Shown: positions 347-44,320 of the stretch, in pieces
Position numbering within the stretch: the stretch's first letter is position 1
Layout of the letters: every line of letters begins with the position of its first letter
From: a candidate division Kazan bacterium GW2011_GWA1_50_15
GTDB lineage: Bacteria; Patescibacteriota; Kazan-3B-28
Length of the DNA: 64,000 nucleotides
Assembly: GCA_001029795.1 (NCBI GenBank)
Contig: CP011216.1
Span: 6,903 to 70,902 of the forward strand
Direction of reading: 5' to 3'
Position numbers and translations under genes: made by a program
The notes under the pieces: generated by a model
Databases searched by the model: none
Seen by the model: only the letters and a program-made list of their open reading frames with translations
What the model was told of the DNA's origin: nothing

Positions 347-601
347 ATGTATACCGTTTATGTTATTTATAACCAGCAGCACGACAAGATTTATATCGGT
401 CAAACAGAAAGTCTGGCGGAGAGGTTGGTTCAACACAAAAATAAACTCCTTGGAGATAAGAGTTACACGGCTCGGTTTGATGGGGGGTGGGCGGTTATTT
501 ATACTGAACAGGTGGCTAGTAGGGTATTAGCAATACAGCGAGAGCGCCAGTTGAAAAGTTACAGAGGACGGCAGTTTGTCAGAGAATTCATTCCCGTGTA
601 G
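347..601 (+). CDS. Small GIY-YIG (URI-domain) nuclease family protein, 84 aa
   Basis: Motifs VYVIYNQQHDKIYIGQTESLAERLVQH (GIY...YIG) plus R and E downstream. The listed ORF (269-601) reads through the tRNA fragment; the likely start is ATG at 347 (MYTVYVIY...). The stop TAG lies inside the first nucleotides of tRNA-Asn. Confidence 0.6.
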   Translation: MYTVYVIYNQQHDKIYIGQTESLAERLVQHKNKLLGDKSYTARFDGGWAVIYTEQVASRVLAIQRERQLKSYRGRQFVREFIPV

Positions 602-665
602 CTCAGCGGTAGAGCAATCGCCTGTTAAGCGATGGGTCGCTGGTTCGAATCCAGCCGCGGGAGCC
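591..665 (+). tRNA. tRNA-Asn (anticodon GTT)
   Basis: Cloverleaf: acceptor tcccgtg/cgcggga, D-arm gctc/gagc, anticodon stem atcgc/gcgat with loop ctGTTaa, T-arm ctggttcgaatccag, CCA encoded. Resembles E. coli tRNA-Asn (UCC... CUGUUAA loop). Confidence 0.8.
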
Positions 666-756
666 ACATAAAAACGAGTCAAATGACCGAGGTGTCTATC
701 TTGGTTGATTTGGCGTTTGTTTATTAAAGCCTGTAAATCTGGTAAAATAAGTCGTC

Positions 757-1785
757 ATGAGCACAACTGATTTAATTAAAAAAATTGAGGAATTGCGAGG
801 ATCAAAGGTGGTAACCTATATCACTAGCGATCGCCCAGGTCCAGTCAGCGCAAAGGTTGCTATGGATGTCGTTCCAATTATTAGTCGCCAACTACGGGCA
901 ATCGGTAAAGTTGAAAAGATTGACCTGTTTTTATATAGTTCGGGTGGAGATACTTTGGTCCCGTGGCGGTTAGTGTCCATGATAAGAGAATATTGTGATC
1001 ATTTTTCTGTACTGATTCCATATAAAGCTCATAGTGCAGCCACTATGATTGCTTTGGGTGCTGATGAAATCGTAATGACTGACTTATCAGAGCTTTCTCC
1101 AATTGATCCATCAACTGCTAATGTCTTTAATCCAGTAGATCCGCAAAATCCTCAAGGGCGAATCCCAATTTCAGTAGAGGATGTAATGGCTTATTTCGAT
1201 TTAGTGAAGAATAAGTTTGGCATCAAGAATGATCCAGATCTAGCGGCCATGTTTGCCAAATTTACCGAGGCCAATCCACAGATTCATCCGTTAGCATTAG
1301 GGAATATTAATCGCATTCACAATCTTATTCGGATGATTGCCCGACGGCTGTTAAAAAGCCACCGAAACCCAATGGAGGAAGAAAACATCACTAAAGTGGT
1401 TGACGATTTGACTGAAAAGCTCTATTCACATCAGTACTTCATTGGCAGGAAAGAGGCGAAGGATGATATCGGCATTAAATCAGTATCAGAGGCGGGCGAT
1501 GATTTGGCCAAGGCGATTACTGATCTGTATGAAAATTATGAAGTCGAGGTTGGACTGGGAATTTCTCAATGGAATCCAGAAGAAGAACTTGGCGTTGGTA
1601 ATCCTCAGGGCCAAAAGGACTACACTATTGCAGTGATAGAGAGCATTTCTAACAGTCGGAAGTTTCATATAAATATGGAGTTTAAACGACAGGTGACTCC
1701 AGCTGTTCAGCAAACTCCGCAAGGTCCTATACAAATTCAACAAGAGCAGATCAGTTTTCGAGTTATTAATCAAGGGTGGAAGTAA
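757..1785 (+). CDS. ClpP/crotonase-fold serine protease of the SDH (serine dehydrogenase proteinase, S49-like) family
   Basis: N-terminal 120 aa match the family pattern: VVTYITSDRPG, DLFLYSSGGD, SAATMIALGADEIVM, SELSPIDP (catalytic Ser in the GxSAAT-type motif). A long C-terminal extension is present. Confidence 0.6.
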   Translation: MSTTDLIKKIEELRGSKVVTYITSDRPGPVSAKVAMDVVPIISRQLRAIGKVEKIDLFLYSSGGDTLVPWRLVSMIREYCDHFSVLIPYKAHSAATMIALGADEIVMTDLSELSPIDPSTANVFNPVDPQNPQGRIPISVEDVMAYFDLVKNKFGIKNDPDLAAMFAKFTEANPQIHPLALGNINRIHNLIRMIARRLLKSHRNPMEEENITKVVDDLTEKLYSHQYFIGRKEAKDDIGIKSVSEAGDDLAKAITDLYENYEVEVGLGISQWNPEEELGVGNPQGQKDYTIAVIESISNSRKFHINMEFKRQVTPAVQQTPQGPIQIQQEQISFRVINQGWK

Positions 1786-1791
1786 GGTATT

Positions 1792-2379
1792 ATGATTGTT
1801 AATTTTTTGAAGTGGATTCAAGAGTTTCTTAACAGCAATATAGGATTGGTGACTTTTGTAGTCAGCTTTTTGGTCATTTATCTTTATGCGAAACAAAAAG
1901 CTGATAAAAAACGTGATGCCGCGAGTTTGATATTACAAGAAATTAGATTCGCCGAGCAGTGCATTAGGACTTATTTAGAGAAATATCAATACCAATTGTC
2001 TGATAGGCTATTGCCAACGAATAGTTGGAATGATAATGTTCATATTTTTATTAATAATCTCGATCAAACAGAATTAGACTTGATTAATCGGTTCTATTCC
2101 AAAACCGCTTACATAGATGTTTTGATTGGTAAAATCTCTGATTTTAAAAATGCTCCTATTCAAATGGGCCAAACCGTCACACCTTCTCAATCAGTGGTAA
2201 TTGGGTCTCCTCCAATGTCGGGTGGCCAGCCTGCACCGATGGTTGTACCTTTTGACCCCCTATTTAATACACAAAATACTCTTGCGAGTGTTTCTCAGAG
2301 TGTAGAACAAATCTACAATACTCCGGCAGGGGAAAAACTTAAGAGAATAGCTAAGAGAAAATGGTACCAGTTAGTTTGA
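1792..2379 (+). CDS. Hypothetical single-pass membrane protein (N-terminal TM helix; Gly/Pro-rich C-terminal segment)
   Basis: Starts 7 nt after the protease stop, forming an operon. Hydrophobic segment IGLVTFVVSFLVIYLY. No recognisable domain. Confidence 0.45.
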   Translation: MIVNFLKWIQEFLNSNIGLVTFVVSFLVIYLYAKQKADKKRDAASLILQEIRFAEQCIRTYLEKYQYQLSDRLLPTNSWNDNVHIFINNLDQTELDLINRFYSKTAYIDVLIGKISDFKNAPIQMGQTVTPSQSVVIGSPPMSGGQPAPMVVPFDPLFNTQNTLASVSQSVEQIYNTPAGEKLKRIAKRKWYQLV

Positions 2380-3654
2380 GTCGGTATTTTTGAGATGTCC
2401 ATTTTGTAAGATTAATCGGTTGGCGATATTTGATAATATTTCTCTTTTTTCTTCCGGCTTGCCTTCTCGGAGGATGTATTTGGCATAAAGCTTGAGGTCA
2501 ACTCTTGGCAATTTTGTTTCTTCTGATGTCAGCCCAAGTATTCCTTGGGTGAATTTATGGTAGCGATCAATTTCTTCTTGGAGTTTTTCTTTCATTCCGA
2601 TTTGATCCAGTTCCAACTTGTCGATTAGTCCAACAAATTGCTCAATTAGATCGGCTTCTCGGGTATATGGCTGGTTACATCCAATTCTTTTACTATCAGT
2701 GCAGTGGTAATAGATATGGCGTTTCATATCACCATTTTTAAGTCGCTTGAATTTCTCCTCGGCAGTTATTCCTGCCCCGCAAGCTCCGCAAACCATTAGT
2801 TTGGTAAAAGCGAAACACTTTTCGCCATGCCGACCATGGGCTGGTCTGGACATTCTAATCTGCACCTCATCGAACAACTCTTTGGTAATAAGCGGTTCGT
2901 GCTTGCCTTGATAGCTTTCTTTACCATAAGTATAGTCGCCATAGTAAAAGGGATTTTTTAGTATCAGGAAGATTGAACTTAAGACTACTTTCTTGCCACT
3001 TCTAGTCGTGAAGTTAGTTTCGGTATTCAGCCAATTGAAAATATCTCTGCCAGAATAGCCCTGCTTGGCCACTTTATTGAACATTTCTTTAATAAGTGGG
3101 GCCCTATCGGGATCAACTTTAATAGTATTGTCTTCCTTAATGTTTAAATATCCCAGTGGAGCTACGCCTGGTCGCCAACCCATCTCGCATTTGGTTCGCA
3201 TACCTCGTTTGACATTGACGCCTTTGTTGTCGTTCTCTAGTTTGGCTTGACTACATAGAATCATTAAGAGGAACTTCTCGTTAGGGGAGTTACGGAATAT
3301 CTGCCCATGGGTACGGATCTCTTGCAGCAGTCCTTGATCCATTAAATCCACTAAAGAACCAAGATCACCAGCATTTCTGCTTAAACGGTCAGGAGCCCAA
3401 GTTAGAATACCATTGAATTCTCCAGAGCGGATTCTCTGCAAAAGATCCATATAGGCAGGCCGTTGGCCAGAATCTTTGGCCGAATGACTTTCTTTGATGG
3501 TTTCTACTACTTCCACTCCATCTCTCTCGGCAGCAGCCATCATCTCCTTGATTTGGGAATCAATGGAAAGGGCTTGTCTTTCGTCCTGTTCGGATGACTT
3601 CCTGGCATATAGACAGTACTTCACGGGCTCCTCTAAAATCTCTTCTTGCGTCAT
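2371..3654 (-). CDS. Large serine recombinase (resolvase/invertase N-domain + recombinase domain + zinc ribbon)
   Basis: YCLYARKSSEQDE...SIDSQ catalytic-Ser region, a recombinase domain and CGACGAG...HIYYHC Zn-ribbon. The ORF extends to 3759; I prefer the ATG at 3654 (MTQEE...) preceded by aaggagaagaat. Confidence 0.75.
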   Translation of the reverse strand: MTQEEILEEPVKYCLYARKSSEQDERQALSIDSQIKEMMAAAERDGVEVVETIKESHSAKDSGQRPAYMDLLQRIRSGEFNGILTWAPDRLSRNAGDLGSLVDLMDQGLLQEIRTHGQIFRNSPNEKFLLMILCSQAKLENDNKGVNVKRGMRTKCEMGWRPGVAPLGYLNIKEDNTIKVDPDRAPLIKEMFNKVAKQGYSGRDIFNWLNTETNFTTRSGKKVVLSSIFLILKNPFYYGDYTYGKESYQGKHEPLITKELFDEVQIRMSRPAHGRHGEKCFAFTKLMVCGACGAGITAEEKFKRLKNGDMKRHIYYHCTDSKRIGCNQPYTREADLIEQFVGLIDKLELDQIGMKEKLQEEIDRYHKFTQGILGLTSEETKLPRVDLKLYAKYILREGKPEEKREILSNIANRLILQNGHLKNTDSN

Positions 3655-3801
3655 ATTCTTCTCCTTTTGTCCATAGGGGTATATTAAGGGTAAGGATGCC
3701 CGAAAGAGGCCTAAAGTCCAGCTATTTTCAGATTTGGAAAAAGCTTCGCAAAGGGCCATAATGGAGTTAAGGTTAAGGCATATTTTATCTACTCATAGGC
3801 C

Positions 3802-4566
3802 ATGAAGAAGCTCAAATATCCTACAGATTTTCTCAATAAAATAATCTGCGGTGATGCCGTAGAGGTTATGAAACAGATTCCCGATGGATCTGTAGATTTG
3901 ATCGTTACATCGCCGCCTTATAATTTAAAAAATTCAACTGGCAATGGAATGAAAGATGGTCGTGGTGGAAAATGGGCCAACGCTGCTTTGCAGAATGGTT
4001 ACACTCATCACGATGACTGTATGCCCCATGATGAGTATGTGAAGTGGCAAAGGGACTGTCTCGCTCAAATGTTAAGGATAATTCCGGAAGAAGGGGCAAT
4101 TTTTTATAACCATAAATGGAGAGTCCAAGATGGTTTGCTCCAAGACAGACAGGATATTGTTAGTGGTTTTCCGGTCAGGCAAATTATTATTTGGAAACGA
4201 AAGGGTGGGCTGAACTTTAACGCCGGGTATTTCCTACCCACTTACGAAGTAATTTACTTAATAGCCAAGTCTAAGTTTAAGTTAGCTGATAAAGCCAATG
4301 CCCAAGGTGATGTATGGGAATTTACACAAGAAATGGGGAATGACCACCCCGCTGCTTTCCCAGTCACTTTAATTAATCGTATAATTTCATCTACCAATGC
4401 CAAGATGATCCTAGATCCCTTTATGGGATCAGGTACCACGGCAATTTCAGCCATAAATTATAATCGTAATTATATTGGGATAGACCTATCGCCAGAATAC
4501 TGCAAGATGGCAGAGAGAAGGATCGAGCTTCGTAAAAAACAAGTAAAATTATTAATAGAAGTATGA
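3802..4566 (+). CDS. Beta-class amino-DNA methyltransferase (N4-cytosine or N6-adenine); motif IV SPPY precedes motif I DPFMGSGTT
   Basis: DLIVTSPPYNL early and DPFMGSGTTAISA late, the same order as M.PvuII/M.MvaI/M.BcnI-type enzymes. Confidence 0.8.
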   Translation: MKKLKYPTDFLNKIICGDAVEVMKQIPDGSVDLIVTSPPYNLKNSTGNGMKDGRGGKWANAALQNGYTHHDDCMPHDEYVKWQRDCLAQMLRIIPEEGAIFYNHKWRVQDGLLQDRQDIVSGFPVRQIIIWKRKGGLNFNAGYFLPTYEVIYLIAKSKFKLADKANAQGDVWEFTQEMGNDHPAAFPVTLINRIISSTNAKMILDPFMGSGTTAISAINYNRNYIGIDLSPEYCKMAERRIELRKKQVKLLIEV

Positions 4567-5357
4567 AAAAACCGATTATTTACACTAAACCGTTGTTGAT
4601 CAAGAAGCTCAAGGAAATTTCCGAATTGGGCTGGATTCCCAATGCAAGAAAAGGCAACGCTGGCGGGATTGGGAACACCCTGGAGGATTTATTGGGGATA
4701 ACAGAAAATAACTTGCCAATACCTAATGCTGCCGAGTGGGAATTAAAAACCCAACGATTAGGTACTAGCTCGTTGACAACACTGTTTCATACAGAGCCGT
4801 CACCCCGTGCGATTAAATTTGTGCCCCAAATTTTGTTACCCAAGTATGGTTGGGCCCATCAGGAAGCAGGGGAACAATATCCTAAGGGCGAAATGAGTTT
4901 TCGTCAGACCATTCATGGGCAATCGAGAAGTGACAGAGGTTTTAATGTGGTGATAGATCGTGCAGAGAAGAAAGTACTAATCTCATTTGATGCCAAGAGT
5001 GTGGATATACGCCACAAAAGATGGCTAGAGTCAGTTAAAAAGAGGGTAGGGCTTAAAGAGCTCGATCCGCAACCGTATTGGGGATTTGACGATCTTGAGC
5101 ATAAGGCAGGCACGAAATTACTTAATACTTTTTATGTACAAGCAGAGACAAAGATTGAACGCAAAAAAGAATACTATCATTACACAAAAATAATGATGCT
5201 TCAGAAGTTCAGTTTCGAGGGATTTCTCAAAGCGCTTGAAGAGGGGTATATTTTAGTGGATTTTGATGCTAGAACGGGCCACAACCACGGAACAAAGTTT
5301 AGGATGCGCCAAGATGCTTTACCAATGCTGTACGAAAAAGTTACTACTATTTTGTAG
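4563..5357 (+). CDS. Type II restriction endonuclease, MvaI/BcnI-like family (putative)
   Basis: Start overlaps the MTase stop (ATGA). N-terminal region GNTLEDLLGITENN...AEWELKTQRL...LTTLFHTEP parallels the BcnI/MvaI pattern GQILERQFG.QENN...GEFELKG...LTLFHKKP (from memory of BcnI). Confidence 0.55.
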   Translation: MKKPIIYTKPLLIKKLKEISELGWIPNARKGNAGGIGNTLEDLLGITENNLPIPNAAEWELKTQRLGTSSLTTLFHTEPSPRAIKFVPQILLPKYGWAHQEAGEQYPKGEMSFRQTIHGQSRSDRGFNVVIDRAEKKVLISFDAKSVDIRHKRWLESVKKRVGLKELDPQPYWGFDDLEHKAGTKLLNTFYVQAETKIERKKEYYHYTKIMMLQKFSFEGFLKALEEGYILVDFDARTGHNHGTKFRMRQDALPMLYEKVTTIL

Positions 5358-5362
5358 AGGAT

Positions 5363-5956
5363 ATGGCAGTAGATAGCATTGCAGATAAACTGGGCAAATA
5401 TCTTGCGAAGGATATCCCTATCAATAACGAGGCCGAAGTCTTATATTTTTTAATTGAGATCGGAAAAATTCTGGAACGAGATGAGAATATAAAATTTCCA
5501 CTCATAAAATTTTATAGGGATTGGGCTTGTCATCCTCGTAAGGACGGAATGATTCAGGAGATGTTAGATATTGTTCAGAAGATATATCAAGACGCTAAAA
5601 ACCACATGCAATCTCCACATGGATTAGGTAAACCTGTGGCTATACTAGATTTTACAAGTGGCGACCATCTTAAGAAGCAGATGAAGATGTTTTTGGCGGA
5701 ATATGGTTTATCGGACGATAATTTACTGTCCGATAAGAATTGGAAGTGGTTTGCCTCGATGCTATGTAATGTCTTAGCCGAACAGCCTCTATATCCTAAG
5801 TCAGAAGGAGTGGATCATGTTGAGTTTTTGCCAGTTGTTCAGGGTGCAGTTGGAGTAAAAGTGATATTCACTGGTGTTGAGAAAGGATGGGACGATAAGG
5901 ATTATGAGTATTATCAATTTCTGAACTATTTAGGCTCTCTGTCAGATGATTCATAA
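5363..5956 (+). CDS. Hypothetical protein, 197 aa; third gene of the RM operon
   Basis: Starts 6 nt after the REase gene on the same strand. No recognisable motifs. Confidence 0.4.
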   Translation: MAVDSIADKLGKYLAKDIPINNEAEVLYFLIEIGKILERDENIKFPLIKFYRDWACHPRKDGMIQEMLDIVQKIYQDAKNHMQSPHGLGKPVAILDFTSGDHLKKQMKMFLAEYGLSDDNLLSDKNWKWFASMLCNVLAEQPLYPKSEGVDHVEFLPVVQGAVGVKVIFTGVEKGWDDKDYEYYQFLNYLGSLSDDS

Positions 5957-5980: not shown

Positions 5981-6173
5981 CCACTGTCTCATTTGTCTCA
6001 TTTTCAGGTATGGGGGATAGCGCTTAGTACTGTCGCATTTGTCGCATTTTCTCCTATGGTTCTACAACTGACCGAGCCAGGTTGTCTCATTCCTAAAATC
6101 CCCAGATTATCTCCTTGGGAATCCAATCTGAACCGACCTGTTGAGCCATTTAGGACAGTTAGCTACTTCAGCC
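5981..6173. repeat. Repeat copy 1: degenerate tRNA-Asn 3'-end-like (T-arm/acceptor) segment preceded by tandem ctgtc(t/g)cattt motifs; att-remnant-like
   Basis: Shares ctgtcgcatttgtcgcattttctcctatgg...attatctcct.tgg...ctgaacc.a.ctgttgagcca with copies at 15187-15343 and 17450-17596. The 3' flank taggac.gttag.ta.ttcagc is shared with copy 3. Overlaps the 3' end of the recombinase gene 6107-7606. Confidence 0.6.
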
Positions 6174-7606
6174 AGTAGATTGAAAGGAGAACTAAGCTCG
6201 TAGAGCAGGTTTTTCCCTTGTAATCGGCAGTTCCGAAGTAAAAGACTCAAAAGTTGCCGTTTTTCAGGCACTTCCGAACTTTCAAATATCTCGCAAGCCC
6301 GTTTTGCCAGATTGAATACCATATTTGCCGTTAAATAAAACTCTTCGTCAGCCTGACTGTGGGTATTCATTTCAGCCAATAACTCTGACTGTCTACCTTT
6401 CCACTCTCTCAGCTTTTTGTCGTATTCTTCCTGTGTAATACTACCGTCGAGCTTGTCCACATACATTTTGGATATGCGATTTTCAAGGCGGTCATACTCA
6501 GCCTTAAGGCTATCCATACTATCACGATGGTAGTGAGATTCGCTTTGCCCGATGGCTTTGAGCTCCCTTGTTAGCCCGTCTATGGTGTCTTGGGGCAGTT
6601 GAATGGCTCTCAGGGCATCGTAGACAGGCTTCAAGAGCTCCTTCTCGGGTATCCAAGCCCTTTCGCAGAGCCCCTTATAGTTAGTGCAACTGTAGTAGAT
6701 ATACTTGCCCTTCTTAAGCTCTGGGGTGATTAAACATCCGCACTTGTCGCATCTTATGAGACCTCTAAAGATAAAGGGTTTAGCTTTGGATTTAAATGAC
6801 TTCTTGTTGTAGCCCGCCATTATGGTTTGGCACTTATCAAATAGCCACTTGGGAATCAGTGGCTCGTATTTGTGAGGATATTCCTTACCCTTAACGACCA
6901 TAACTCCGTGGTAAAAGGGATTTTTCAGATTCTTATGAACAAGACTGTTAGGGATTTGTTTCCCGTTTCTGGTCATCAACCCCGTCTTGTCTAACTCTTG
7001 TTTAATAGTTTTGACTGAATGCTGACCTGTCGCATAAAGCTCAAACATTCTTCTTATTGAATGGGCTCTTTCTGGGTCTGGGATGATTGTCTTTTTACCA
7101 TCAGGCAGGTCTTGGTTGATGTAGCCGATTGGAGCCATCCCTGCCCACTCCCTATTTAATATTTTTTGACTAAGGCTACGCTTCACATTGTCGCTTAGTT
7201 GCAAAACATAGCTTCGGGCAAACATTACTCCCATATCCCAACGAAGCAGGTCGGAGCTATTAGATTGGTCGTTGAGTATCAGGTTCTCTCGGATAAAGTG
7301 GATTTCTAATCTGCCATTCTTGCGGAACTCGTCCAATGTAACTGATTCCTTAAAACTGCGCTGTAGGCGGTCTATGGTTTCTACTACTAAAGTTACGGGT
7401 TCCTTGGAGGTGCTAATCTCGTTAATAACTAACTCAAACTTTTTGCGTTGGTCTTTAGTGGAAGACTCGTCAAATTGATATTCGCTCTGGACATCTAAAT
7501 TTCTGTCTTGGCACCATTGTCTTGAGCGGGCAAGTTGGGCGGGGATAGACTGTCCGTCCTGTATTTGTTCTTCTGTTGAAACTCGGGCTAAGATGACGGC
7601 TTTCAT
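6107..7606 (-). CDS. Large serine recombinase (second copy, distinct sequence)
   Basis: MKAVILARVSTEEQ...SIPAQ N-terminal resolvase motif, recombinase domain and Cys-rich zinc ribbon CDKCGC...YYSCTNY. Confidence 0.8.
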   Translation of the reverse strand: MKAVILARVSTEEQIQDGQSIPAQLARSRQWCQDRNLDVQSEYQFDESSTKDQRKKFELVINEISTSKEPVTLVVETIDRLQRSFKESVTLDEFRKNGRLEIHFIRENLILNDQSNSSDLLRWDMGVMFARSYVLQLSDNVKRSLSQKILNREWAGMAPIGYINQDLPDGKKTIIPDPERAHSIRRMFELYATGQHSVKTIKQELDKTGLMTRNGKQIPNSLVHKNLKNPFYHGVMVVKGKEYPHKYEPLIPKWLFDKCQTIMAGYNKKSFKSKAKPFIFRGLIRCDKCGCLITPELKKGKYIYYSCTNYKGLCERAWIPEKELLKPVYDALRAIQLPQDTIDGLTRELKAIGQSESHYHRDSMDSLKAEYDRLENRISKMYVDKLDGSITQEEYDKKLREWKGRQSELLAEMNTHSQADEEFYLTANMVFNLAKRACEIFESSEVPEKRQLLSLLLRNCRLQGKNLLYELSSPFNLLAEVANCPKWLNRSVQIGFPRR

Positions 7607-10600
7607 AGATTATTTTCTTTTGCAATTTGTAGGTATAAGCGGTTGACCTCTTTGTCCACATCACGCATTTTAGAATCATTCTTATAGCCAAGATGAGCTT
7701 CCTTCGATAGGTTAACAAGTGCTTTGTGCGCACTATTGTTAGGGTCATACTTGGGGATATATACAGGGGGTCGAATCTTAAAGGTCCGACTGTCTGAGGA
7801 TAATAACACAAATTTTTGTGTGATAGGGGCATTTAGGATGGCACAAATGAAGTGGGCTTCGTCGATTGTGATAAAGCCTCCCTTGGCATCTTCGCAGATA
7901 GATACGGCGTGGTTCTGAAAGAGCGGATGTCTTACCCCGCCCCATTCAGTATCCACGTCGGACACGACCACAGCCTGCCATTTTGTGTTGTCTCGAAAAC
8001 AGACATAATTTCTTGCAAAGCTATAAGCCCCCACCCTTGCTAAGGCGTAAAACTCCTGCTCTTTTTTGCCAATAATCTTTGCATTGTATTCTGTTTGATT
8101 CTCAAACATCTTTTTGTAGTTTACGAAATAGGTGGCGAGTAAGGGACTTTTTTCTTTTAATATTTTGAGATTCAAAGGGACACGAGTGCTAACCTCCTTA
8201 TCGTATGGAAATGGAACAACATAATTGTCGTCTGTGTTGAGATGATATCTTTCAATATCGACACCCTTGATTAGGGGGTGTAGATATTCTTTCTCTACTA
8301 AAATAGTTTGCTGACCTATCTTATACTTTGACTTTTGATTTTGATAATTGTTAAGATATACCTTCCCAGTTAGGGCTTTTATCTCTAAATCGGCTTTGAA
8401 CAGAAGGAGCTCCTGTGGATAGAATTCGATGCCCTCTCTACCTAAATAATAAGAGCTACCCGAGATTGAATTGAAATCTTGTATGTCAGATTTATTATTA
8501 GCATAAGTAAAAGCCGTGTTTTCATCATTGCACTGACCAAGATACCCCTCTTTTTTAATAAAGAATTCTTTTACATTCTCAAACTTAGAGTAATGATTGA
8601 TTTCCTCAATCGGCTTTTTAGTGTTTTTCTTGTAAATCTCTAAGTTAATGCCTTTCTTGTAGTCAGTTTTGTTGCTTGATATAAAGTAGGTTAAAAACTT
8701 ATGCTGGACAGGTTTGAAAGGATGACCCGCTCCTGTCCAATCAACAATTTTTTGGAAGTAAAATCTTGTGCCATCTGAAATATAAAAATTCCTAAAACCC
8801 TCATAAGTCTGTTGGAATAGGAGATTCTGTGGCATCAGGAAAGAAAGCACCCCGTCTTTTTTTAGCCAGTTATCAACAGCGACATTCGCAATAAGAGCAC
8901 AGATATTGAGATTAATACCCCCAGTAATACCATCGCCTGAGAATAGGTGTCTTTCGATGCAGAGAGATTTCACCCTTTCTCGATAACCCTCAGGTAGGCT
9001 TTTCCAGTCAATCCAGGGCGGATTGCCGACTATCAGGTCAAATTTGCCGAGATTGGCAGTGGTAAGAAAATTCGTAACAATACGAGCCCAGATACCATTC
9101 CACTCGTTTTTCTCGAGTTCAACGAATCTGCTGGACAAGTCCTGGATATTTGAAATTATATCGTTGTTAATGTCTGCCTTGTTTACTAAAGCAACTATCT
9201 TATTAAAAACCGCCTTTTCATCTAATGCTTTGATATCTTGTTCGATTGCAGTCATTGTCCTTGAAAATAGACCAGAATCAGCCACTGCACTTTTGGGTAA
9301 GGTAACGTCGAGGTATCCTTTAAGGGTTTTGATTTTGTAGTTTAAGCAATCAACACCTGAGACCTTGGTTTCTTCTGGAACATATGAAGAATCGCCCAGG
9401 TAAACTGGGATTTCTATGTCTCCATCGTCAGTAATCAAATGAGCGATATTGATAAAGTAGTTTATTCTACAAGTCAGCACTGCTAACGGGTTCAGGTCAA
9501 TTGCCTTAACACGATTCAATATGCTCTTTAAGCGATTCTCTTTGCTGTTATCAGATGCTTCTTCGTTGATAATTTTCTCAATCAGAACAGTTATAAATGT
9601 TCCAGACCCAGCACAAGGGTCTAATCCTCTCCAATTTGGCTTATTATCCAACATTTCGATTGTCTCTGTAACAAGGTGGTCGGCAAGCCAAGCTGGTGTA
9701 TAGAATTCACCTAAGCTATGCCTAACTTTTAATGGGATTATTTGCTCGTATAGTTCTTTAAATAAATCTTGAGCACGGGTCTCTTCCTGAGATAAAATCT
9801 TGTCTTCATATTTTGTAAGAGTATGAAAGGTTTCCTTAACTATTTCATAAATGTCGTCGCTCCATTGACCAGGTGATGCATACCAAGAGAAAAAGTCTCC
9901 CTCAAGGAGATTAGTGATACCCAGAGACCTAAAGACAGCTCCATCTTCAAGTGCCTCCATTTGCTTCTGAATGACGGAACTGTTGCTGACAGCCAGCTCG
10001 TTGAATTGGATGATATTTTTCTTGAACTTAATTTTACTTGTAACCTTATAGGCAATTATTTTGATAATTATTGCATAAGCCGTTTGTAGAGAATATAGGG
10101 CTAAATATTCCTCTGCATTGGTTTTGATTTTGATACCCAAACTCCTCCCCAGTGCATGTCTTCTTTCTTCAATAGCCAATTGTTTAGACTTGTCGTTATG
10201 TGCAAGTCTAAACAATTCTCGCCACTCTTCAAAGAGCATCAGAGTTTTGCCAGTAGCTTTATTGTTAAGGGTGTCAAAAAGAATTTTTGCCAACCTTTTT
10301 GATAGAGAGCAATCAAGAGGTTCACAAAAATCTTTGACAAGGTTTTTTGAGTTAAGGGCTACTAAGTCAAGGATTAGTATCGACCTAATTATTCTGTCCA
10401 AATATCTATCCGAGATATCTCCCCAAGCTTCCTCATAAATTTTACCGTGTTCACATCTTATAAACTTTAAAATAATCCCGTCTGTAACAAGACCAAGATA
10501 GTCGTTCTGATTTTTTGCATATAAACCAGAAAGATAGTCAGTTAATTGTTGGTCCGCACTATCCTTATGTGCTTTTGTTTTTAGTTTACTCGGGTGCTTG

Positions 10601-10863
10601 AATTCAATAATGAATCCACCATACTTGCTGTCTATCCTTCCTTTGGTTATGTGCCGTTCAGTATTGACCAACTTTTCCTTCTGGGGATAGTATTTAATTC
10701 CTAAGTGGTCAGACAAAAAGGCAAATAAGTTGATTTCAAAAACACTTACAACAGTAGCTTCATTTTCTGCCGTCTCTGAGCCTCGGCGTATAGACAAAGC
10801 CAAGTCGACAAGCTTTTCTCTGTATTCAGTAGTGTCTAAAAAACTAAGGTTTTTGCTTTCCAT
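7603..10863 (-). CDS. Type IIG/IIL-like fused restriction-modification enzyme (N-terminal PD-(D/E)xK nuclease + gamma-class N6-adenine MTase + C-terminal target-recognition region), 1086 aa
   Basis: IDSKYGGFIIEFK (D...ExK) near the N-terminus. MTase motif I LDPCAGSGTF and motif IV IVGNPPWIDW. Size and layout resemble MmeI/BpuSI-type enzymes. Start overlaps the recombinase stop (ATGA). Confidence 0.6.
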   Translation of the reverse strand: MESKNLSFLDTTEYREKLVDLALSIRRGSETAENEATVVSVFEINLFAFLSDHLGIKYYPQKEKLVNTERHITKGRIDSKYGGFIIEFKHPSKLKTKAHKDSADQQLTDYLSGLYAKNQNDYLGLVTDGIILKFIRCEHGKIYEEAWGDISDRYLDRIIRSILILDLVALNSKNLVKDFCEPLDCSLSKRLAKILFDTLNNKATGKTLMLFEEWRELFRLAHNDKSKQLAIEERRHALGRSLGIKIKTNAEEYLALYSLQTAYAIIIKIIAYKVTSKIKFKKNIIQFNELAVSNSSVIQKQMEALEDGAVFRSLGITNLLEGDFFSWYASPGQWSDDIYEIVKETFHTLTKYEDKILSQEETRAQDLFKELYEQIIPLKVRHSLGEFYTPAWLADHLVTETIEMLDNKPNWRGLDPCAGSGTFITVLIEKIINEEASDNSKENRLKSILNRVKAIDLNPLAVLTCRINYFINIAHLITDDGDIEIPVYLGDSSYVPEETKVSGVDCLNYKIKTLKGYLDVTLPKSAVADSGLFSRTMTAIEQDIKALDEKAVFNKIVALVNKADINNDIISNIQDLSSRFVELEKNEWNGIWARIVTNFLTTANLGKFDLIVGNPPWIDWKSLPEGYRERVKSLCIERHLFSGDGITGGINLNICALIANVAVDNWLKKDGVLSFLMPQNLLFQQTYEGFRNFYISDGTRFYFQKIVDWTGAGHPFKPVQHKFLTYFISSNKTDYKKGINLEIYKKNTKKPIEEINHYSKFENVKEFFIKKEGYLGQCNDENTAFTYANNKSDIQDFNSISGSSYYLGREGIEFYPQELLLFKADLEIKALTGKVYLNNYQNQKSKYKIGQQTILVEKEYLHPLIKGVDIERYHLNTDDNYVVPFPYDKEVSTRVPLNLKILKEKSPLLATYFVNYKKMFENQTEYNAKIIGKKEQEFYALARVGAYSFARNYVCFRDNTKWQAVVVSDVDTEWGGVRHPLFQNHAVSICEDAKGGFITIDEAHFICAILNAPITQKFVLLSSDSRTFKIRPPVYIPKYDPNNSAHKALVNLSKEAHLGYKNDSKMRDVDKEVNRLYLQIAKENNL

Positions 10864-11068: not shown

Positions 11069-12190
11069 TTACATCTCAAATCTGGGTTTGTAAGGTTGAA
11101 ATTCATCAATCTGAGCAATGACTTGCTTAACCCAGCCGTCATATTGGGCGGGGGATTTGTTGAGGTTTTTTAGCTCTTTTACGATTCGAGTCCAAGTGCG
11201 AGGGTTGGCTCTGTTGTTTAGCATTTGTCGTAATTCTCTTATGCCTGTTGCGTCTTTAGCCAAGAGATATAAGCCCGTAAGAAAGATGGCTTGTTTGTGT
11301 TTGATTTTAGGGTGGTTAATCAGGATGGTATTAAGAATTTGCTTGGGCTTAATGTCGCTGGTAAAGATAAATAAGTTGTGGTTGGCTATGAGCTCTTGCC
11401 AGTAGTAGCTCACTACCTTTTGCGAGGTGCCGCTACAGAAAACATCTTTAAATGTGGGATTCTTGGGGTATCCGAGTTTCTGGAGTAAAGAATTGAGTTT
11501 ACGCCTGTCAGCAATGCGTATTTCCACTCTAAGAATTTCAAGTTTTTGTTCTTGGGCTTGTTCAAATAAAGAGCGTTGAATATAGTTTTGGTCTTTGTCT
11601 ATGGAACGGTTTTTGGTCTTCTGGATGTCTTGGATTTTGTCATAAAAGACAAGGGAATTCGAGGTGGCATAGTATTGCAGGGATTGCCCATCGTTCTGAA
11701 ACCCGTGCCGTGTAATATCCAGTTTTTTAGATATGTTTACCTTCATTAGCTCTTTGATTACGAAGCTTGGGGTGTAGCCATCCTCAAGTTCAATATTTTT
11801 GGAGTAGTGGACTGCGGATACCTGTGCAGTGGCTAACAGGGGTTTTAGTATGTTAACCCCAATATCCCTAAGACTGTTGGTTAGTCTTTCAAGCACGGCA
11901 TCAAAGTCGCTATCGGTCAGTTCTTCCAGATTGTTGCCGTATAGCAGTTTAGGGGCTGAAAACTGGATAGTTAGCTCCTGTGCTATCTGACCATCTTTTG
12001 TCCATCTTTTCGTAAGGGTTAGGCAGGGTCTGTAGTGATGCAACCGTCTTTCTTCGGCAGTCGGGTTGTTTGTGATTTTGCTTATGGGTTTTTCATACTT
12101 AGTGAAATCATCAGCATTTTTGCTGAATTTATCGGGTTTTGAGATGTAATATTGCCCCTTAGGAATTTTTAGGACGATTGTGTCTATCAT
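11069..12190 (-). CDS. Hypothetical protein, 373 aa; possibly a replication/mobilisation initiator of the integrated element
   Basis: No firm motif. Position within a recombinase-bearing element and basic/Tyr-containing segments suggest a Rep-like role; this is an unverified guess. Confidence 0.3.
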   Translation of the reverse strand: MIDTIVLKIPKGQYYISKPDKFSKNADDFTKYEKPISKITNNPTAEERRLHHYRPCLTLTKRWTKDGQIAQELTIQFSAPKLLYGNNLEELTDSDFDAVLERLTNSLRDIGVNILKPLLATAQVSAVHYSKNIELEDGYTPSFVIKELMKVNISKKLDITRHGFQNDGQSLQYYATSNSLVFYDKIQDIQKTKNRSIDKDQNYIQRSLFEQAQEQKLEILRVEIRIADRRKLNSLLQKLGYPKNPTFKDVFCSGTSQKVVSYYWQELIANHNLFIFTSDIKPKQILNTILINHPKIKHKQAIFLTGLYLLAKDATGIRELRQMLNNRANPRTWTRIVKELKNLNKSPAQYDGWVKQVIAQIDEFQPYKPRFEM

Positions 12191-12399: not shown

Positions 12400-13551
12400 C
12401 TATTCGAGGTATTTTTTGTTGAGCTGGAGCGTAGTTTTTTTCATAATTACAAAATCCCTAATCCTGGTTTGCTTGGCTATCTCCTCGTTGAGGTCATAGG
12501 TGGCATTGTAGAGCTTCTTCCAATGCTTGCGAGGGTTATACTCAATGCTCTTGCCAAAGAGTTTTTCCCAAAGTTCATCGACATCCCAGACTTTTGTGGG
12601 GGCTTTGAATACTGCTTTGAGTAGATAGTGGGGGTTGCTGTCGAGAGTTTTAGAGATGATAGCTCTGTGAACCTGAAATACCAACTCGCTTGTTTTGGGG
12701 TTGAAGGCGGTTGGGCATTTTGTCAGCACTTTGGTTGGCTGGTTTTCTTCTTGGAGAGTTTTGTTTTTTAGCGTAACCCTGACCTTATAAGTCATTGTTT
12801 CCTTCTCGGGAGGGACATCCCAGTCCGTTACCCAGATTGCATTAACATCAAAATATCCCTGCTTTTCCAAGGCAATCAGGGTATGTATGAACAGACCCTG
12901 TCTCTCTGCCAAGATATAACTTGGGAATGGATTGGGGGTATTTTGACCAGGGTTTTGCACCACAAAGGTGTTGCCAAGGTCTCTGCTCTCCATTTTGAGC
13001 TCCCGTAACATCCGCTCCTTTTGTCTATCGAATTTGTAGTAATTATCTTTTTCTACAGCCAGGTTATCAGATATAAATGCTTCAATGTAAGATGTCAGAA
13101 AACTATCCAGCCTATCCTGGGTTTTCTTGCTGAGTATAGTTGGGAACTCAAACCACTCTGCCAACTTGTATTTTTCGGATATCATTCCTATCGCTATAAA
13201 GTCTTGATAGGTAAACTCATTTTTCTTCAGGGCTTCTATCGAGTTTGCTATTCCTTCGCTAACACCATCTTCAATGTGCTGGCTCCACTCATCATCATTG
13301 GTGTAGGTGTAATATCCTTTAGAGTTGAAAGAGAGACCATCTATCTCGATACCCATATTTTTCATATGGAGGCTTAGTAATGCCAAGCACACGCCCAAGG
13401 TCGAGAAGTCGGGAGCAGCGAGGTCTTCAAATCCTATGGGGTTTTTGGTGGTCAACCTGTGCGCATTAGCATACTTCCAGAGTCCATATAGGATTTTCTC
13501 TGGCAGATAGGGGCACTGCTTCAATTTTTGGGGGTTGGACGCTTGCTTCAT
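12400..13551 (-). CDS. Hypothetical protein, 383 aa
   Basis: Long ORF in the AT-rich island with no recognisable domain. Confidence 0.35.
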   Translation of the reverse strand: MKQASNPQKLKQCPYLPEKILYGLWKYANAHRLTTKNPIGFEDLAAPDFSTLGVCLALLSLHMKNMGIEIDGLSFNSKGYYTYTNDDEWSQHIEDGVSEGIANSIEALKKNEFTYQDFIAIGMISEKYKLAEWFEFPTILSKKTQDRLDSFLTSYIEAFISDNLAVEKDNYYKFDRQKERMLRELKMESRDLGNTFVVQNPGQNTPNPFPSYILAERQGLFIHTLIALEKQGYFDVNAIWVTDWDVPPEKETMTYKVRVTLKNKTLQEENQPTKVLTKCPTAFNPKTSELVFQVHRAIISKTLDSNPHYLLKAVFKAPTKVWDVDELWEKLFGKSIEYNPRKHWKKLYNATYDLNEEIAKQTRIRDFVIMKKTTLQLNKKYLE

Positions 13552-13652: not shown

Positions 13653-13728
13653 GCCTCTGTAGCTCAATGGACAGAGCAACTGTCTTCTGAACAGTAGGTT
13701 GAGGGTTCAAATCCCTCCAGAGACACCA
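13653..13728 (+). tRNA. tRNA-Arg (anticodon TCT), embedded at the right end of the island
   Basis: D-arm gctc/gagc, anticodon stem actgt/acagt with loop ctTCTga, T-arm gagggttcaaatccctc, CCA encoded. One C-A mismatch at acceptor pair 2:71. Confidence 0.6.
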
Positions 13729-13787
13729 AGGGCAATGACGGCACTTTCTGATTGTGCTTTTTCTGCTTGTCCTGCTACGATGTAGGC

Positions 13788-14294
13788 ATGACGATGAAGA
13801 CTACCAAGCTACCCCCGAAGGCACTCAAAGCAGTTGATGTGGGGCGGTATTTTATACATCTCTCCAATGAGGCAGGGAAGCCAATAACCAACAAAAAGCT
13901 ACAAAAGCTGGTCTATTACTCTCAGGCTTGGTCATTGGTGCTTAACGATAAAAAGCTCTTTGGTGAGCCTATTGAAGCGTGGGTTCACGGACCTGCTGTG
14001 CGAAGCCTGTATGTTCAATACAAGCCATTTGGCTTTGGTCCAATACGGGAAACGATAAGCGTTCAGGATGTCAAAAAAATATCTGGCAAGGTCAAGAAAC
14101 TCCTTGATGACATCTGGCAGGTTTATGGCAAGTTAGATGCCAGTTATCTTGAAATGCTGACCCATTCTGAACAGCCTTGGCTGACTGCTCGGGATGGACT
14201 ACAGGGGCACGAGAACTCTGAGAAGGAAATATCTTTAGACAGTATGAAGAGCTTCTATACCGACAAGCTCCAAAAGTCTAAAGGTAGAAAATGA
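13788..14294 (+). CDS. Panacea-domain (DUF4065, SocA-like) antitoxin-type protein
   Basis: KLQKLVYYSQAWSLVLNDKKLFGEPIEAWVHGPAVRSLY matches the DUF4065/Panacea core. The ORF is listed from 13752; internal Met preferred. Confidence 0.55.
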   Translation: MTMKTTKLPPKALKAVDVGRYFIHLSNEAGKPITNKKLQKLVYYSQAWSLVLNDKKLFGEPIEAWVHGPAVRSLYVQYKPFGFGPIRETISVQDVKKISGKVKKLLDDIWQVYGKLDASYLEMLTHSEQPWLTARDGLQGHENSEKEISLDSMKSFYTDKLQKSKGRK

Positions 14295-14737
14295 CAGATA
14301 TTCCCAAAGGTGTAGTTCAGCCCTCTGAAGAGGGGGGTATAGAGATAACCCAATCGGTTGCTGAACTGCCCGAGGAAAGCGAAGCTCCAGAGGCGAGCCC
14401 TTATTTGATTTCTTTTGCGAAGTATAACGAGAGAGAGTGCCAGATTGCTGATTTGCAGGGGAATATGGGTAAAAAGGCGTTGTTAATACTAAAGGCAATA
14501 GGCACTAAGATAAAGTGCATTGCAGACTTTGCTACTCATAATGTTGAAAGGCGTCCCATAAGGCGGGAGGGGGACTATTTGAAACTGTATAGGGGTCTCA
14601 GTGATGATATTGACCTTCACGAAGCCAACCTACAAAGCACGGGTAGGATTTTCTATTTTGATGTGGAGCCAGACAGGTTGCTCTATGTGGTCGCAATTAC
14701 CAATCGCCATTTTGAGACGGGCAAGGTTAGGCGGTAG
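14291..14737 (+). CDS. Putative RelE/ParE-fold toxin partner, 148 aa
   Basis: 4-nt overlap with the upstream Panacea gene. C-terminal RIFYFDVEPDRLLYVVAITNRHFE resembles the RelE/ParE C-terminal motif (R.YY....L.v..I.H). Confidence 0.4.
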   Translation: MTDIPKGVVQPSEEGGIEITQSVAELPEESEAPEASPYLISFAKYNERECQIADLQGNMGKKALLILKAIGTKIKCIADFATHNVERRPIRREGDYLKLYRGLSDDIDLHEANLQSTGRIFYFDVEPDRLLYVVAITNRHFETGKVRR

Positions 14738-20115: not shown

Positions 20116-20190
20116 GGGTCCGTAGCTCAGTGGTAGAGCAGTCCCCTCATAAGGGATGGGTCGTAGGTTCGATCCCTACCGGACCCACCA
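20116..20190 (+). tRNA. tRNA-Met, elongator (anticodon CAT)
   Basis: Acceptor gggtccg/cggaccc fully paired (G1-C72), anticodon loop ctCATaa, T-arm gtaggttcgatccctac, CCA encoded. Confidence 0.75.
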
Positions 20191-21021: not shown

Positions 21022-21096
21022 TGGATGCGGGGGTGGGATTCGAACCCACGACCTGAAGGTTATGAGCCTTCCGAGCTACCACTGCTCTACCCCGCG
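21022..21096 (-). tRNA. Initiator tRNA-fMet (anticodon CAT)
   Basis: Reverse complement cgcggggtagagcagtggtagctcggaaggctCATaaccttcaggtcgtgggttcgaatcccacccccgca-t-cca. C1 x A72 acceptor mismatch and near-identity to the E. coli tRNA-fMet acceptor/T arms. Confidence 0.75.
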
Positions 21097-21960: not shown

Positions 21961-22035
21961 TGGTGCCAGCGACAGGATTCGCACCTGTGACCAACGGCTT
22001 ATGAGTCCGCTGCTCTACTGCTGAGCTACGCTGGC
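21961..22035 (-). tRNA. tRNA-Ile2 (anticodon CAT, presumed lysidine-modified) or a third tRNA-Met
   Basis: Reverse complement gccagcgtagctcagcagtagagcagcggactCATaagccgttggtcacaggtgcgaatcctgtcgctggcacca. It is the third CAU tRNA and lies next to tilS. Confidence 0.65.
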
Positions 22036-43882: not shown

Positions 43883-43958
43883 TGGTGGACCCGGGCGGAC
43901 TCGAACCGCCTACCTCCGCATTGCAAATGCGATGTTCTACCGGGTGAACTACGGGCCC
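43883..43958 (-). tRNA. tRNA-Ala (anticodon TGC)
   Basis: Reverse complement gggcccgtagttcacccggtagaacatcgcatttTGCaatgcggaggtaggcggttcgagtccgcccgggtccacca. G3-U70 identity pair present. Confidence 0.8.
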
Positions 43959-44179: not shown

Positions 44180-44243
44180 ATAGGCATTATAGCAACTTCG
44201 TTGCTGGACGTTGGTTTTTCTGCTAATCTGGCTGGTGTTGACG

Positions 44244-44320
44244 GGCGTGTAGCTCAGTTGGTTAGAGCGCTGTCCTGATAAGACAGAGGTCCCTGGTTCG
44301 AATCCAGGCACGCCCACCAG
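44244..44320 (+). tRNA. tRNA-Ile (anticodon GAT)
   Basis: gggcgtgtagctcagttggttagagcgctgtcctGATaagacagaggtccctggttcgaatccaggcacgcccacca. Confidence 0.85.

Follow-up and report, generated by a model that had tools for sequence, protein, structure and literature searches.

A ClpP-fold serine protease beside a membrane-anchored partner on a mobile island of a Kazan bacterium: a candidate proteolysis-controlled conflict module

In the NfeD/stomatin systems a ClpP-class protease is encoded beside a membrane-anchored partner, and NfeD (STOPP, P. horikoshii 1510-N) cuts stomatin in its C-terminal region; NfeD itself sits in the membrane and ends in an OB domain, and the partner is an SPFH-domain protein. 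Bacterial gasdermin systems combine interchangeable types of protease (caspase-like, CHAT, subtilase) with one membrane effector in a defence-island context, and are activated by removal of a short C-terminal segment. Here we describe a gene pair that resembles both arrangements. It lies in a 64,000-nucleotide stretch of DNA (the window; positions 6,903 to 70,902 of contig CP011216.1, assembly GCA_001029795.1) from the candidate division Kazan bacterium GW2011_GWA1_50_15, and consists of two open reading frames (ORFs) that are present as the first-pass annotation of this DNA had reported them: ORF1 (757..1785, + strand), encoding an SDH-type serine protease of 342 residues with ClpP/SppA fold and predicted cytoplasmic location, and ORF2 (1792..2379, + strand), encoding a 195-residue single-pass membrane protein with a predicted cytoplasmic helical bundle, our proposed protease client. 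Unlike NfeD, the window protease shows in its model nothing besides a ClpP-like core, a helical domain and a beta domain, hence no NfeD-type membrane or OB module, and its sequence does not match the NfeD family; ORF2 lacks an SPFH domain in both sequence and fold, and the distribution of the genes is mobile and sporadic. We therefore do not retain the earlier proposal of an NfeD/stomatin-like pair. Compared with gasdermins, ORF2 is all-helical and single-pass without a gasdermin fold, the proteases at loci of the window type are ClpP-, proteasome- and trypsin-like, and cleavage is here a proposal.

Our leading hypothesis is a protease-gated membrane effector. The pair would be a conflict module that spreads horizontally and works by proteolysis, akin to abortive-infection or toxin-antitoxin systems, in which ORF1 would act as a cytoplasmic SDH-type ClpP-fold protease and ORF2 as its dedicated membrane-anchored client. 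The protease would cut the linker or tail of ORF2; the cut would free the C-terminal helices and so switch the activity of the membrane-anchored domain, which could then act, for example, as a membrane-damaging effector that halts the infected cell. We give this mechanism a probability of roughly 40%, while the broader claim, that ORF1 and ORF2 work together as protease and client in a role of the conflict type, seems to us slightly better than an even bet. We infer within this scheme that ORF2 is a substrate, where it would be cut, that cutting would activate rather than neutralise it, what would trigger the cut and that the outcome would be a defence phenotype. The scheme is preferred because the protease appears intact, conserved and cytoplasmic, because the client family is almost always protease-adjacent, whatever the fold of the protease, because an exposed, cleavable-looking linker joins two conserved parts of the client, and because the surroundings are mobile and rich in restriction-modification and toxin-antitoxin genes, with a spread across phyla.

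The assignment of ORF1 to the SDH/ClpP class, already made in the first-pass annotation, was borne out by a hidden Markov model search and by structure prediction. ORF1 scored 56.6 bits (cut-off 31.3, E 2.6e-15) against Pfam PF01972 SDH_protease, a family related to MEROPS S49, the match spanning only residues 4-123, or profile positions 38-162 of 286, and no other Pfam family was matched. It also matched phrog_11747 (E 9e-40, residues 5-262) and, at 61.1 bits and hence under the 250-bit cut-off, the NCBIfam equivalog NF047768 ('SDH family Clp fold serine proteinase'); judged by sequence, the window protease belongs to a divergent branch relative to NF047768. The AlphaFold2 model (mean predicted local distance difference test score, pLDDT, 95) falls into three parts: residues 1-135 form a ClpP-like core, 140-278 a helical domain and 284-341 a beta domain of three strands. 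Among solved structures SppA and ClpP were closest in fold (Foldseek E ~1e-5), and the best solved match to the profile of the protease family was the archaeal NfeD protease 1510-N (E 1.8e-4, residues 48-121), with ClpP narrowly behind (7e-4). SppA (S49) and ClpP (S14) have the core fold and the position of the nucleophile in common with the window protease; SppA, however, relies on a Ser-Lys dyad and is either secreted or bound to the membrane, and ClpP works with AAA+ unfoldases and belongs to PF00574, which the window protease does not match. What sets the window family apart from both is an invariant His within a helical domain peculiar to this family, together with an extra C-terminal beta domain. 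Among viral structures (BFVD) the best matches, at TMq 0.56, were 'serine dehydrogenase proteinases' of giant viruses and not prohead proteases of tailed phages; the matches were multiple paralogous proteins of this name, from Marseillevirus, Mimivirus, Klosneuvirus and Hyperionvirus.

More than 3,155 homologs of ORF1 were found. A full scan of 1.8 billion representative proteins gave 436 clusters (at 50% identity) with E<1e-30, and most of those listed align with ORF1 nearly end to end. An alignment of 65 diverse homologs (A1) shows no variation at G63, G64, S93, T96, E141, G182, H225 and W341, and very little at D117 and D142 (each conserved to at least 90%), R186 and E233. The codons of Gly63-Gly64 (943..948, + strand) encode part of a candidate oxyanion-hole motif, SSGGD, which we take to be the counterpart of the SPGG motif of ClpP. 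Ser93 (codon AGT, 1033..1035, + strand), in the motif AHSAATM, aligns with the ClpP active-site region and is the predicted nucleophile, and His225 (codon CAT, 1429..1431, + strand) is the putative catalytic histidine. From this conservation we infer a Ser/His/acid catalytic triad, and with these candidate residues conserved and a confident ClpP/SppA-fold model the protease looks active. His225 lies in the helical domain, within what had been described as a long C-terminal extension. This region is no mere add-on, since it is part of the nearly full-length alignment of most listed clusters and holds E141, D142, G182, R186, E233 and W341 in addition to His225.

ORF2 follows ORF1 after a spacer of 6 nucleotides (1786..1791, + strand), so that its ATG begins 7 nucleotides past the last base of the stop codon, in agreement with the offset of seven given before. 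A purine-rich, Shine-Dalgarno-like run, GGTGGAAGTAAGG, at 1775-1787 overlaps the stop codon of the protease gene, and no promoter-like or terminator-like site was seen between the two genes. ORF2 had no match in Pfam, PADLOC, PHROGs or NCBIfam, none in 50,697 phage records and, as a profile, none among PDB sequences; 72 homologs of ~40-58% identity were found (alignment of the family, A2). Its AlphaFold2 model (pLDDT 88) is an all-helical bundle, for which a Foldseek search of the PDB returned nothing below E 0.57. According to A2 and the model, the protein begins with an amphipathic helix. It contains a single hydrophobic helix near the N-terminus, as previously noted, which is the predicted transmembrane helix (approximately residues 17-33; 1840..1890, + strand). 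In the model this helix continues unbroken from residue 17 to 64, running into a long stalk with the motif KRDAASLILQEIRYAEQ, and is followed directly after the membrane-spanning part by a basic cluster, KQKADKKRD. By the positive-inside rule, ORF2 is expected to have its N-terminus outside and its C-terminus inside, which would place the bundle in the cytoplasm alongside the protease. Two further helices carry the motifs LLPTNSWN and FYSKAxYID.

The Gly/Pro-rich region of ORF2, earlier described as a tail, turned out to be an internal linker. It covers approximately residues 121-157 (2152..2262, + strand), about 37 residues that are rich in Pro, Gln, Ser and Gly, have pLDDT values of 56-68 and no secondary structure in the model, and vary in both length and sequence across A2. 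The linker is a candidate cleavage region on the strength of these properties. Beyond it lie two conserved C-terminal helices (2263..2376, + strand; pLDDT 94-97) with the motif IYNTPAGEKLKRIAKRKWY; in the consensus IYNTPxxEKLxxI..KW, N176 and L183 are invariant and Y175, T177, P178 and K182 nearly so. In the model these helices probably pack against the N-terminal domain, to which they are tethered by the exposed linker.

The genomic linkage between the two families is most evident when viewed from ORF2. Eighty metagenomic loci were collected through ORF2 homologs, of which 34 were informative, with at least 1 kb of sequence upstream and 0.6 kb downstream. A protease adjoins the ORF2 homolog in 28 of these 34 loci (82%), and in 27 of the 28 it lies within ~30 nucleotides. 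The adjacent proteases are of several kinds: 19 are SDH proteases and four are members of a 308-residue family, PRS, all located upstream; four are canonical short ClpP proteins (PF00574, E 1.7e-22) encoded directly downstream; and one is an upstream Trypsin_2 protein (E 5e-12), whose gene ends 70 nucleotides before the ORF2 homolog. Over all loci, 38 of the 41 measured gaps between SDH and ORF2 genes were between -34 and +26 nucleotides. The pairing with a protease recurs in unrelated contexts, namely behind rpoD, where the two genes stand in the opposite order, in the grpE/dnaK gap (L003), in serine-recombinase islands (the window and L085), and beside the trypsin-like gene. In a tree of ORF2 homologs, those with an SDH partner form a paraphyletic background, and those partnered by PRS, by ClpP (twice), by trypsin and by DUF3892 form derived clades; the adjacent protease has therefore repeatedly been replaced by an unrelated one. 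An inhibitor would be specific for a fold and a substrate would not, so the pattern points to ORF2 as a substrate rather than an inhibitor, and it argues, as far as sequence comparison goes, that what ORF2 requires is proteolysis and not the surface of one given protein. That a single client goes with several unrelated protease folds makes an unusually clear case, in comparative genomics, for a protease-substrate relation. Among 35 SDH-ORF2 pairs the distances of the two proteins were correlated (Mantel r 0.39, p 0.006), and ORF2 evolves about twice as fast as the protease (mean distance 0.53 vs 0.26).

The PRS family gave 2,476 matches; the 120 that were listed are 67-92% identical to the query, and those with a named source are almost all from Patescibacteria. 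PRS scored 19.8 bits against Pfam Proteasome (PF00227), under the threshold of 22.4, although many members carry a precomputed PF00227 match, and its N-terminus, MSLAINTTTPEGMILAADSR, resembles the start of HslV or of a beta-subunit. Comparison by hhalign with an approximate E. coli HslV sequence gave no match, nor did a search of the PRS profile against PDB sequences; the likeness to proteasome subunits is suggestive only. PRS occupies the same slots as the SDH protease, as in the gene orders hrcA-grpE-x-trypsin-PRS-partner-dnaK-dnaJ and RadC-Phd-ParE-PRS-x-Mod-x-Res, and both draw on a common pool of partners that includes the ORF2 family and a family designated c49, which we count in favour of the proposed module. 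PRS genes were seen in L085 (4072-4998), in L104, L111, L115, L121 and L132, and in L252-L257.

Viewed from the protease, the linkage is much looser. We examined 80 genomic loci encoding proteins 65-72% identical to ORF1; here and in the other loci collected, genes were called as longest ORFs by custom scripts, and many of the loci come from metagenome-assembled genomes, whose taxonomic labels may include mis-binned contigs. The loci represent many lineages of Patescibacteria as well as Smithella and other deltaproteobacteria, Nitrospirae, Omnitrophota, Bacteroidota and Ratteibacteria. Copies of 66% identity are found on deltaproteobacterial contigs of 2.1 and 2.8 Mb, and since these two contigs are megabase-scale, the spread between phyla appears to be real. 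Three genomes have two copies each, with differing neighbours. The position directly behind the protease is occupied by ~39 different families, housekeeping genes among them, and only ~17 of the 80 loci have an ORF2-like gene. The two-gene module that the first-pass annotation proposed thus stands from the side of ORF2 and not from that of the protease. Other genes found directly behind the protease encode DUF6941 (nine loci), a TIGR04255 protein, a Zn-ribbon protein, Bro-N/PDC-S13 and several other membrane proteins and, in Smithella, GNAT plus isochorismatase. A protease tree showed no clear clade structure and no clustering by partner type. Two themes that might unite the partners were considered and rejected: a common degron, because segments like the Pro/Gln-rich disordered linker of ORF2 were not enriched (3 of 51 partner vs 21 of 652 background families, p 0.41), and a common membrane effector, because transmembrane helices were predicted, by a crude hydropathy method, in 31% of the partners directly behind the protease against 33% of the background (p 0.78).

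A typical protease site has conserved genes upstream (RadC, GrpE or a small GIY-YIG gene, sometimes with Phd/ParE intervening) and a variable co-directional array downstream. Type III Mod is present in 20 and Res in 11 of the 80 loci, mostly downstream, and the neighbours further include PADLOC candidate families, restriction endonucleases, PIN and HEPN-like proteins and Phd/ParE; this apparent enrichment of defence genes refers to the neighbours observed at these loci. The Mod/Res and toxin-antitoxin neighbours, the dual copies and the recombinase at the island edge suggest a conflict role for the pair, and there may be a functional connection between the protease cassette and type III restriction-modification. 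One island recurs, whole or in part, in the order RadC-(Phd/ParE)-protease-small partner(s)-type III Mod-(small gene)-type III Res (L047, L064, L026, L068, L016, L058, L069, L253/L254); the small gene between Mod and Res is possibly DUF3800-like, judged by eye. In 13 of the 80 loci the protease gene is located within or beside hrcA-grpE-dnaK-dnaJ, several times in the grpE/dnaK gap. In Patescibacteria this gap has recurrently received protease-led cassettes of one to four variable genes, without a recombinase (L002-L004, L007, L032, L034, L036, L038, L049, L050, L060, L061, L070, L252).

More distant relatives of the protease occur in phages and prophages, where they occupy moron positions, a placement that speaks for the proposed module. 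Six records were found among 50,697 phage genomes, and the two contexts that we inspected are accessory positions outside the capsid genes: in Gordonia phage BeeGee the gene lies between the tail/lysis genes and the integrase region, and in Porphyromonas phages it adjoins a HicAB pair. IMG/VR contigs contain only relatives of 33-48% identity; of 44 viral contigs, four have a relative (36-37% identity) between the large terminase and portal genes, followed by a 70-residue ORF, three have one adjoining an integrase, and in the others the contexts are mixed. Directly 3' of the viral relatives (L169-L210) are 19 unrelated families of small ORFs (60-130 residues), which are acidic (p 5e-6) and rich in S/T/N/Q (p 1e-6) in comparison with other small ORFs, a background that may include spurious ORFs. 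Two of the 19 families end in an acidic, Trp-containing tail (EWNTPEEDEAWANL), which may resemble the C-termini of antitoxins.

In E. coli, a protein 38.8% identical to ORF1 and named 'SDH family Clp fold serine proteinase' by PGAP/RefSeq, as is NF047768, is encoded in 47 of 5,426 complete genomes at 99% identity or more (WP_044064371/WP_086714419; for example L259 4001-4996, corresponding to NZ_CP032426.1 3842171-3843166). In the plasmid record and the three chromosomes inspected it is a lone antisense gene of a lambdoid prophage, between the antiterminator gene Q and a lambda-type holin gene, a locus that carries stx in Stx phages. The only candidate partner is an unannotated, S/T/N-rich ORF of 59 residues (L259 4989-5168) that overlaps the stop codon. 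Relatives of 42% identity in L263 and L264 are likewise lone and face a large serine recombinase, the one in L263 near the end of its contig. As a lone prophage-borne protease gene, the E. coli relative parallels lit, an exclusion/abortive-infection gene on the E. coli prophage e14. Its product, Lit, is a metalloprotease dependent on zinc that cleaves EF-Tu when triggered by the Gol peptide of T4; it has no homology to the window protease.

Several of these observations weigh against a protease-gated effector. ORF2-like genes are present in only a fraction of the protease loci, partners of one type do not cluster in the protease tree, and the protease can evidently work without ORF2, as the lone gene in E. 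coli implies. Conversely, over all loci, those with no visible protease beside the ORF2 homolog have DUF3892 (seven), DUF6941 (two) or Mod (two) instead, or flanks too short to judge, so that seven ORF2 homologs pair with DUF3892 and a few adjoin only Mod. Co-inheritance of SDH protease and ORF2, as expressed by the Mantel coefficient, is only moderate, and in the dense, co-directional genomes of Patescibacteria a short intergenic distance says little about a functional link. With its one transmembrane helix, ORF2 does not resemble any known pore former. No sensor domain is obvious in the protease, and its mean pairwise identity of 77% in the 80-locus set is unusually high, which counts against the proposal because such conservation is atypical for a component that recognises phages.

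The main rival explanation reverses the roles: the protease would be the effector or toxin, acting on a conserved cellular or phage target, and the partner its regulator, tether, bait or labile antitoxin, so that loss or alteration of the partner would free the protease. We consider this unlikely, but it is the alternative that we take most seriously. It would fit a highly conserved protease with diverse and faster-evolving partners, the lone gene in E. coli and the acidic, S/T/N/Q-rich small proteins behind the viral relatives, if one allows for possible spurious ORFs in the background of that last comparison. Effector swapping is usual in defence systems, and trypsin-like domains akin to the neighbour of one ORF2 homolog are effector domains in the models of retron XI, Lamassu and Avs1b. 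Against this reading, moving a specific inhibitor or tether between unrelated protease folds would be difficult, yet ORF2 has made that move repeatedly, and its folded domains are strongly conserved and membrane-anchored, which is more than a bait peptide requires. Among toxin-antitoxin systems, control of a partner by proteolysis is likewise found in the type VI system SocAB, and Panacea antitoxins likewise join one conserved component to many unrelated partners; SocA, in contrast to the window protease, is a ClpXP adaptor and not a protease, and gene order and conservation patterns differ from those of the window pair.

A second explanation, which we regard as distinctly improbable, is that there is no direct biochemical link between the two proteins. 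The protease would then be an autonomous accessory enzyme, for example one acting in Lit-like exclusion, at the 5' edge of variable arrays in which ORF2 is common cargo. The wide range of families that follow the protease, housekeeping genes included, the absence of clade structure by partner type and the lone genes in E. coli and in L263/L264 all agree with this, as does the finding that the SDH protease and the 308-residue PRS protein fill the same slot in RadC-Phd/ParE-[protease]-[X]-Mod-Res. It fits the behaviour of ORF2 poorly, since ORF2 homologs retain a protease neighbour across unrelated contexts (rpoD, grpE/dnaK, recombinase islands, the trypsin-like gene) and 28 of 34 is far above chance adjacency.

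A housekeeping role in membrane-protein quality control, in which an NfeD/stomatin- or SppA-like protease would trim a scaffold or clear peptides from the membrane, appears very improbable. The closest solved relatives, NfeD 1510-N by profile and SppA by fold, the membrane anchor of the partner and the 13 loci in the hrcA-grpE-dnaK-dnaJ heat-shock operon speak for such a role, but the variable content of the grpE/dnaK gap identifies it as an insertion hotspot. Moreover, the distribution is sporadic, with a tight group of 61-98% identity extending over several phyla and including the 2-Mb deltaproteobacterial contigs, some genomes have two copies with different neighbours, the window pair is on a low-GC (guanine plus cytosine) mobile island, and the features that set the pair apart from NfeD and stomatin apply here as well. 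Hardly credible at all is a remnant or component of a phage head module, with a prohead maturation protease and a scaffold-like partner, a role that the first-pass annotation had rightly thought unlikely: weak matches to ClpP-type head-maturation proteases over residues 42-112 (PHROG E 1e-8; NCBIfam NF045542 34.5 bits, against a cut-off of 120) and the four viral contigs with terminase and portal neighbours are offset by the absence of structural-gene matches among the scanned island proteins and of any phage head module at the ~120 loci of the subfamily of >65% identity, by the rarity and accessory position of the phage relatives and by the antisense copy between Q and holin in E. coli, so that homologs in phage structural operons are found only among distant relatives (33-37% identity) and not in the close subfamily.

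Returning to the protease-gated effector, we compared the pair with catalogued defence systems. Neither ORF1 nor ORF2 matched any family in PADLOC-DB v2.0.0 at E<=0.01, nor did the short ClpP-like protease or six recurrent partner families, and PRS gave marginal matches only (E ~7e-4). The trypsin-like neighbour of one ORF2 homolog was the only protein to resemble known defence protease domains (retron XI, Lamassu, Avs1b in PADLOC). Proteases are likewise part of defence modules in retron XI, Lamassu (LmuA-protease) and Avs1b; those are trypsin-like and fused to sensors, whereas the window protease has a ClpP fold and is encoded by a separate gene. In the literature we found nothing that links PF01972, 'serine dehydrogenase proteinase', DUF6941/TIGR04255 or ClpP-like proteases to defence, and the earlier view that the pair is not a named defence system agrees with this. 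Few defence or addiction systems are known in the Patescibacteria (candidate phyla radiation, CPR), a huge and mostly uncultured group of epibionts with tiny genomes. One study reports Patescibacteria-specific defence genes, namely LdgA and the Dallas system with DdgA (PMC12366544). By comparison with PADLOC-DB, the pair would be a protease-based two-gene conflict module new to the catalogue, though it may overlap with LdgA or Dallas.

A wider reading, which we advance tentatively and would expect to fail more often than to hold, is that the pair belongs to a large, unrecognised family of modular immune or addiction systems, each built around a protease, and that this family dominates the accessory regions of Patescibacteria. 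Such modules would use interchangeable, self-compartmentalising or trypsin-like proteases (SDH ClpP-fold, short ClpP, PRS, Trypsin_2) with a pool of partners comprising the ORF2 family, c49, DUF6941, TIGR04255-like proteins and DUF3892, often just 5' of type III restriction-modification genes, and the lone moron of E. coli lambdoid prophages would be a distant member. The known repertoire of protease-based immunity comprises caspase-like, CHAT, trypsin, subtilase and Lon-like proteases and metalloproteases. If our proposal is right, ClpP-fold and possibly proteasome-like proteases would enter it as a new class of portable conflict modules, and the ORF2 family would be a new type of proteolysis-controlled membrane effector or regulator. 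If it is wrong, the analysis still describes, at the level of the family, a very abundant, highly conserved and uncharacterised protease for which there are more than 3,000 sequence clusters. Through its prophage homolog in E. coli (47 complete genomes) the protease family can be tested directly in a model organism.

Lastly, we considered the setting of the pair in the window. ORF1 and ORF2 are the first genes past a tRNA-Asn(GTT) gene (592..666, + strand; ARAGORN), immediately after which GC content drops from 0.48 to 0.39. This tRNA gene forms the left edge of a low-GC island of ~13 kb that extends to ~13,650, with a GC content of 0.36-0.44 against ~0.50 around it. Its gene content agrees with the earlier description of a mobile island beside restriction-modification systems. 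A large serine recombinase with Resolvase, Recombinase and Zn_ribbon_recom domains (Pfam; 2371..3759, - strand) is convergent with ORF2 and overlaps it by 9 nucleotides; a protease gene, with or without a client gene, faces a large serine recombinase also in L085 and in L263/L264. There follow a type II restriction-modification cassette of an N6_N4 methyltransferase and an MvaI/BcnI endonuclease (3802..5357, + strand; Pfam E 6e-38 and 8e-69), a 197-residue ORF (5363-5956, + strand) with no match in any library scanned, a second large serine recombinase (6107..7606, - strand; Pfam), a type IIG restriction-modification enzyme (7603..10863, - strand; PADLOC REase_MTase_IIG, E 3e-161), a Phage_CRI/G2P-like rolling-circle replication protein (11069-12190, - strand; E 1.9e-5) and a 383-residue ORF (12400-13551, - strand) without a family match. 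No capsid, portal or terminase match was obtained among the island proteins scanned with the family libraries. A tRNA-Arg gene (13653-13728) marks the right border.

The two recombinase genes flank the stretch 3802-5956 with the methyltransferase, the endonuclease and the 197-residue ORF, an arrangement suggestive of cassettes that are carried by recombinases and are nested or composite. Four groundwater metagenome contigs hold this island at 99-100% identity, and neither an empty site nor a variant was found among them. The names of homologs and the genes around the island likewise indicate a host from the Patescibacteria. In one of these copies (L249) a gene for an HTH_17 (excisionase-like) protein lies between those for the type IIG enzyme and Rep, and the island may replicate after excision. 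No repeat of 11 or more nucleotides was common to the flank of tRNA-Asn and the five regions considered as candidate island junctions, and an absence of direct repeats at the junctions is expected for serine recombinases.

Some features at and beyond the island borders may be added. A small GIY-YIG gene (269-601, + strand; PF01541 E 2.4e-12) precedes the island and overlaps the start of tRNA-Asn at 592; GIY-YIG genes of ~90 codons stand directly 5' of the protease gene in five of the 80 related loci, and another is near the PRS-ORF2 pair in L085. Just past tRNA-Arg, at the right border of the island, a SocA/Panacea-domain gene (13752-14294, + strand; PF13274 E 7.5e-19) overlaps by 4 nucleotides a 148-residue ORF (14291-14737, + strand) with no family match, and together (13752-14737) they look like a pair of PanA-type antitoxin and toxin. 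Farther along the window, three tRNA-Met(CAT) genes of mixed orientation occur inside 2 kb (20116-20190, + strand; 21022-21096 and 21961-22035, - strand), and a tRNA-Ala(TGC) gene (43883-43958, - strand) is divergent from a tRNA-Ile(GAT) gene (44243-44319, + strand).

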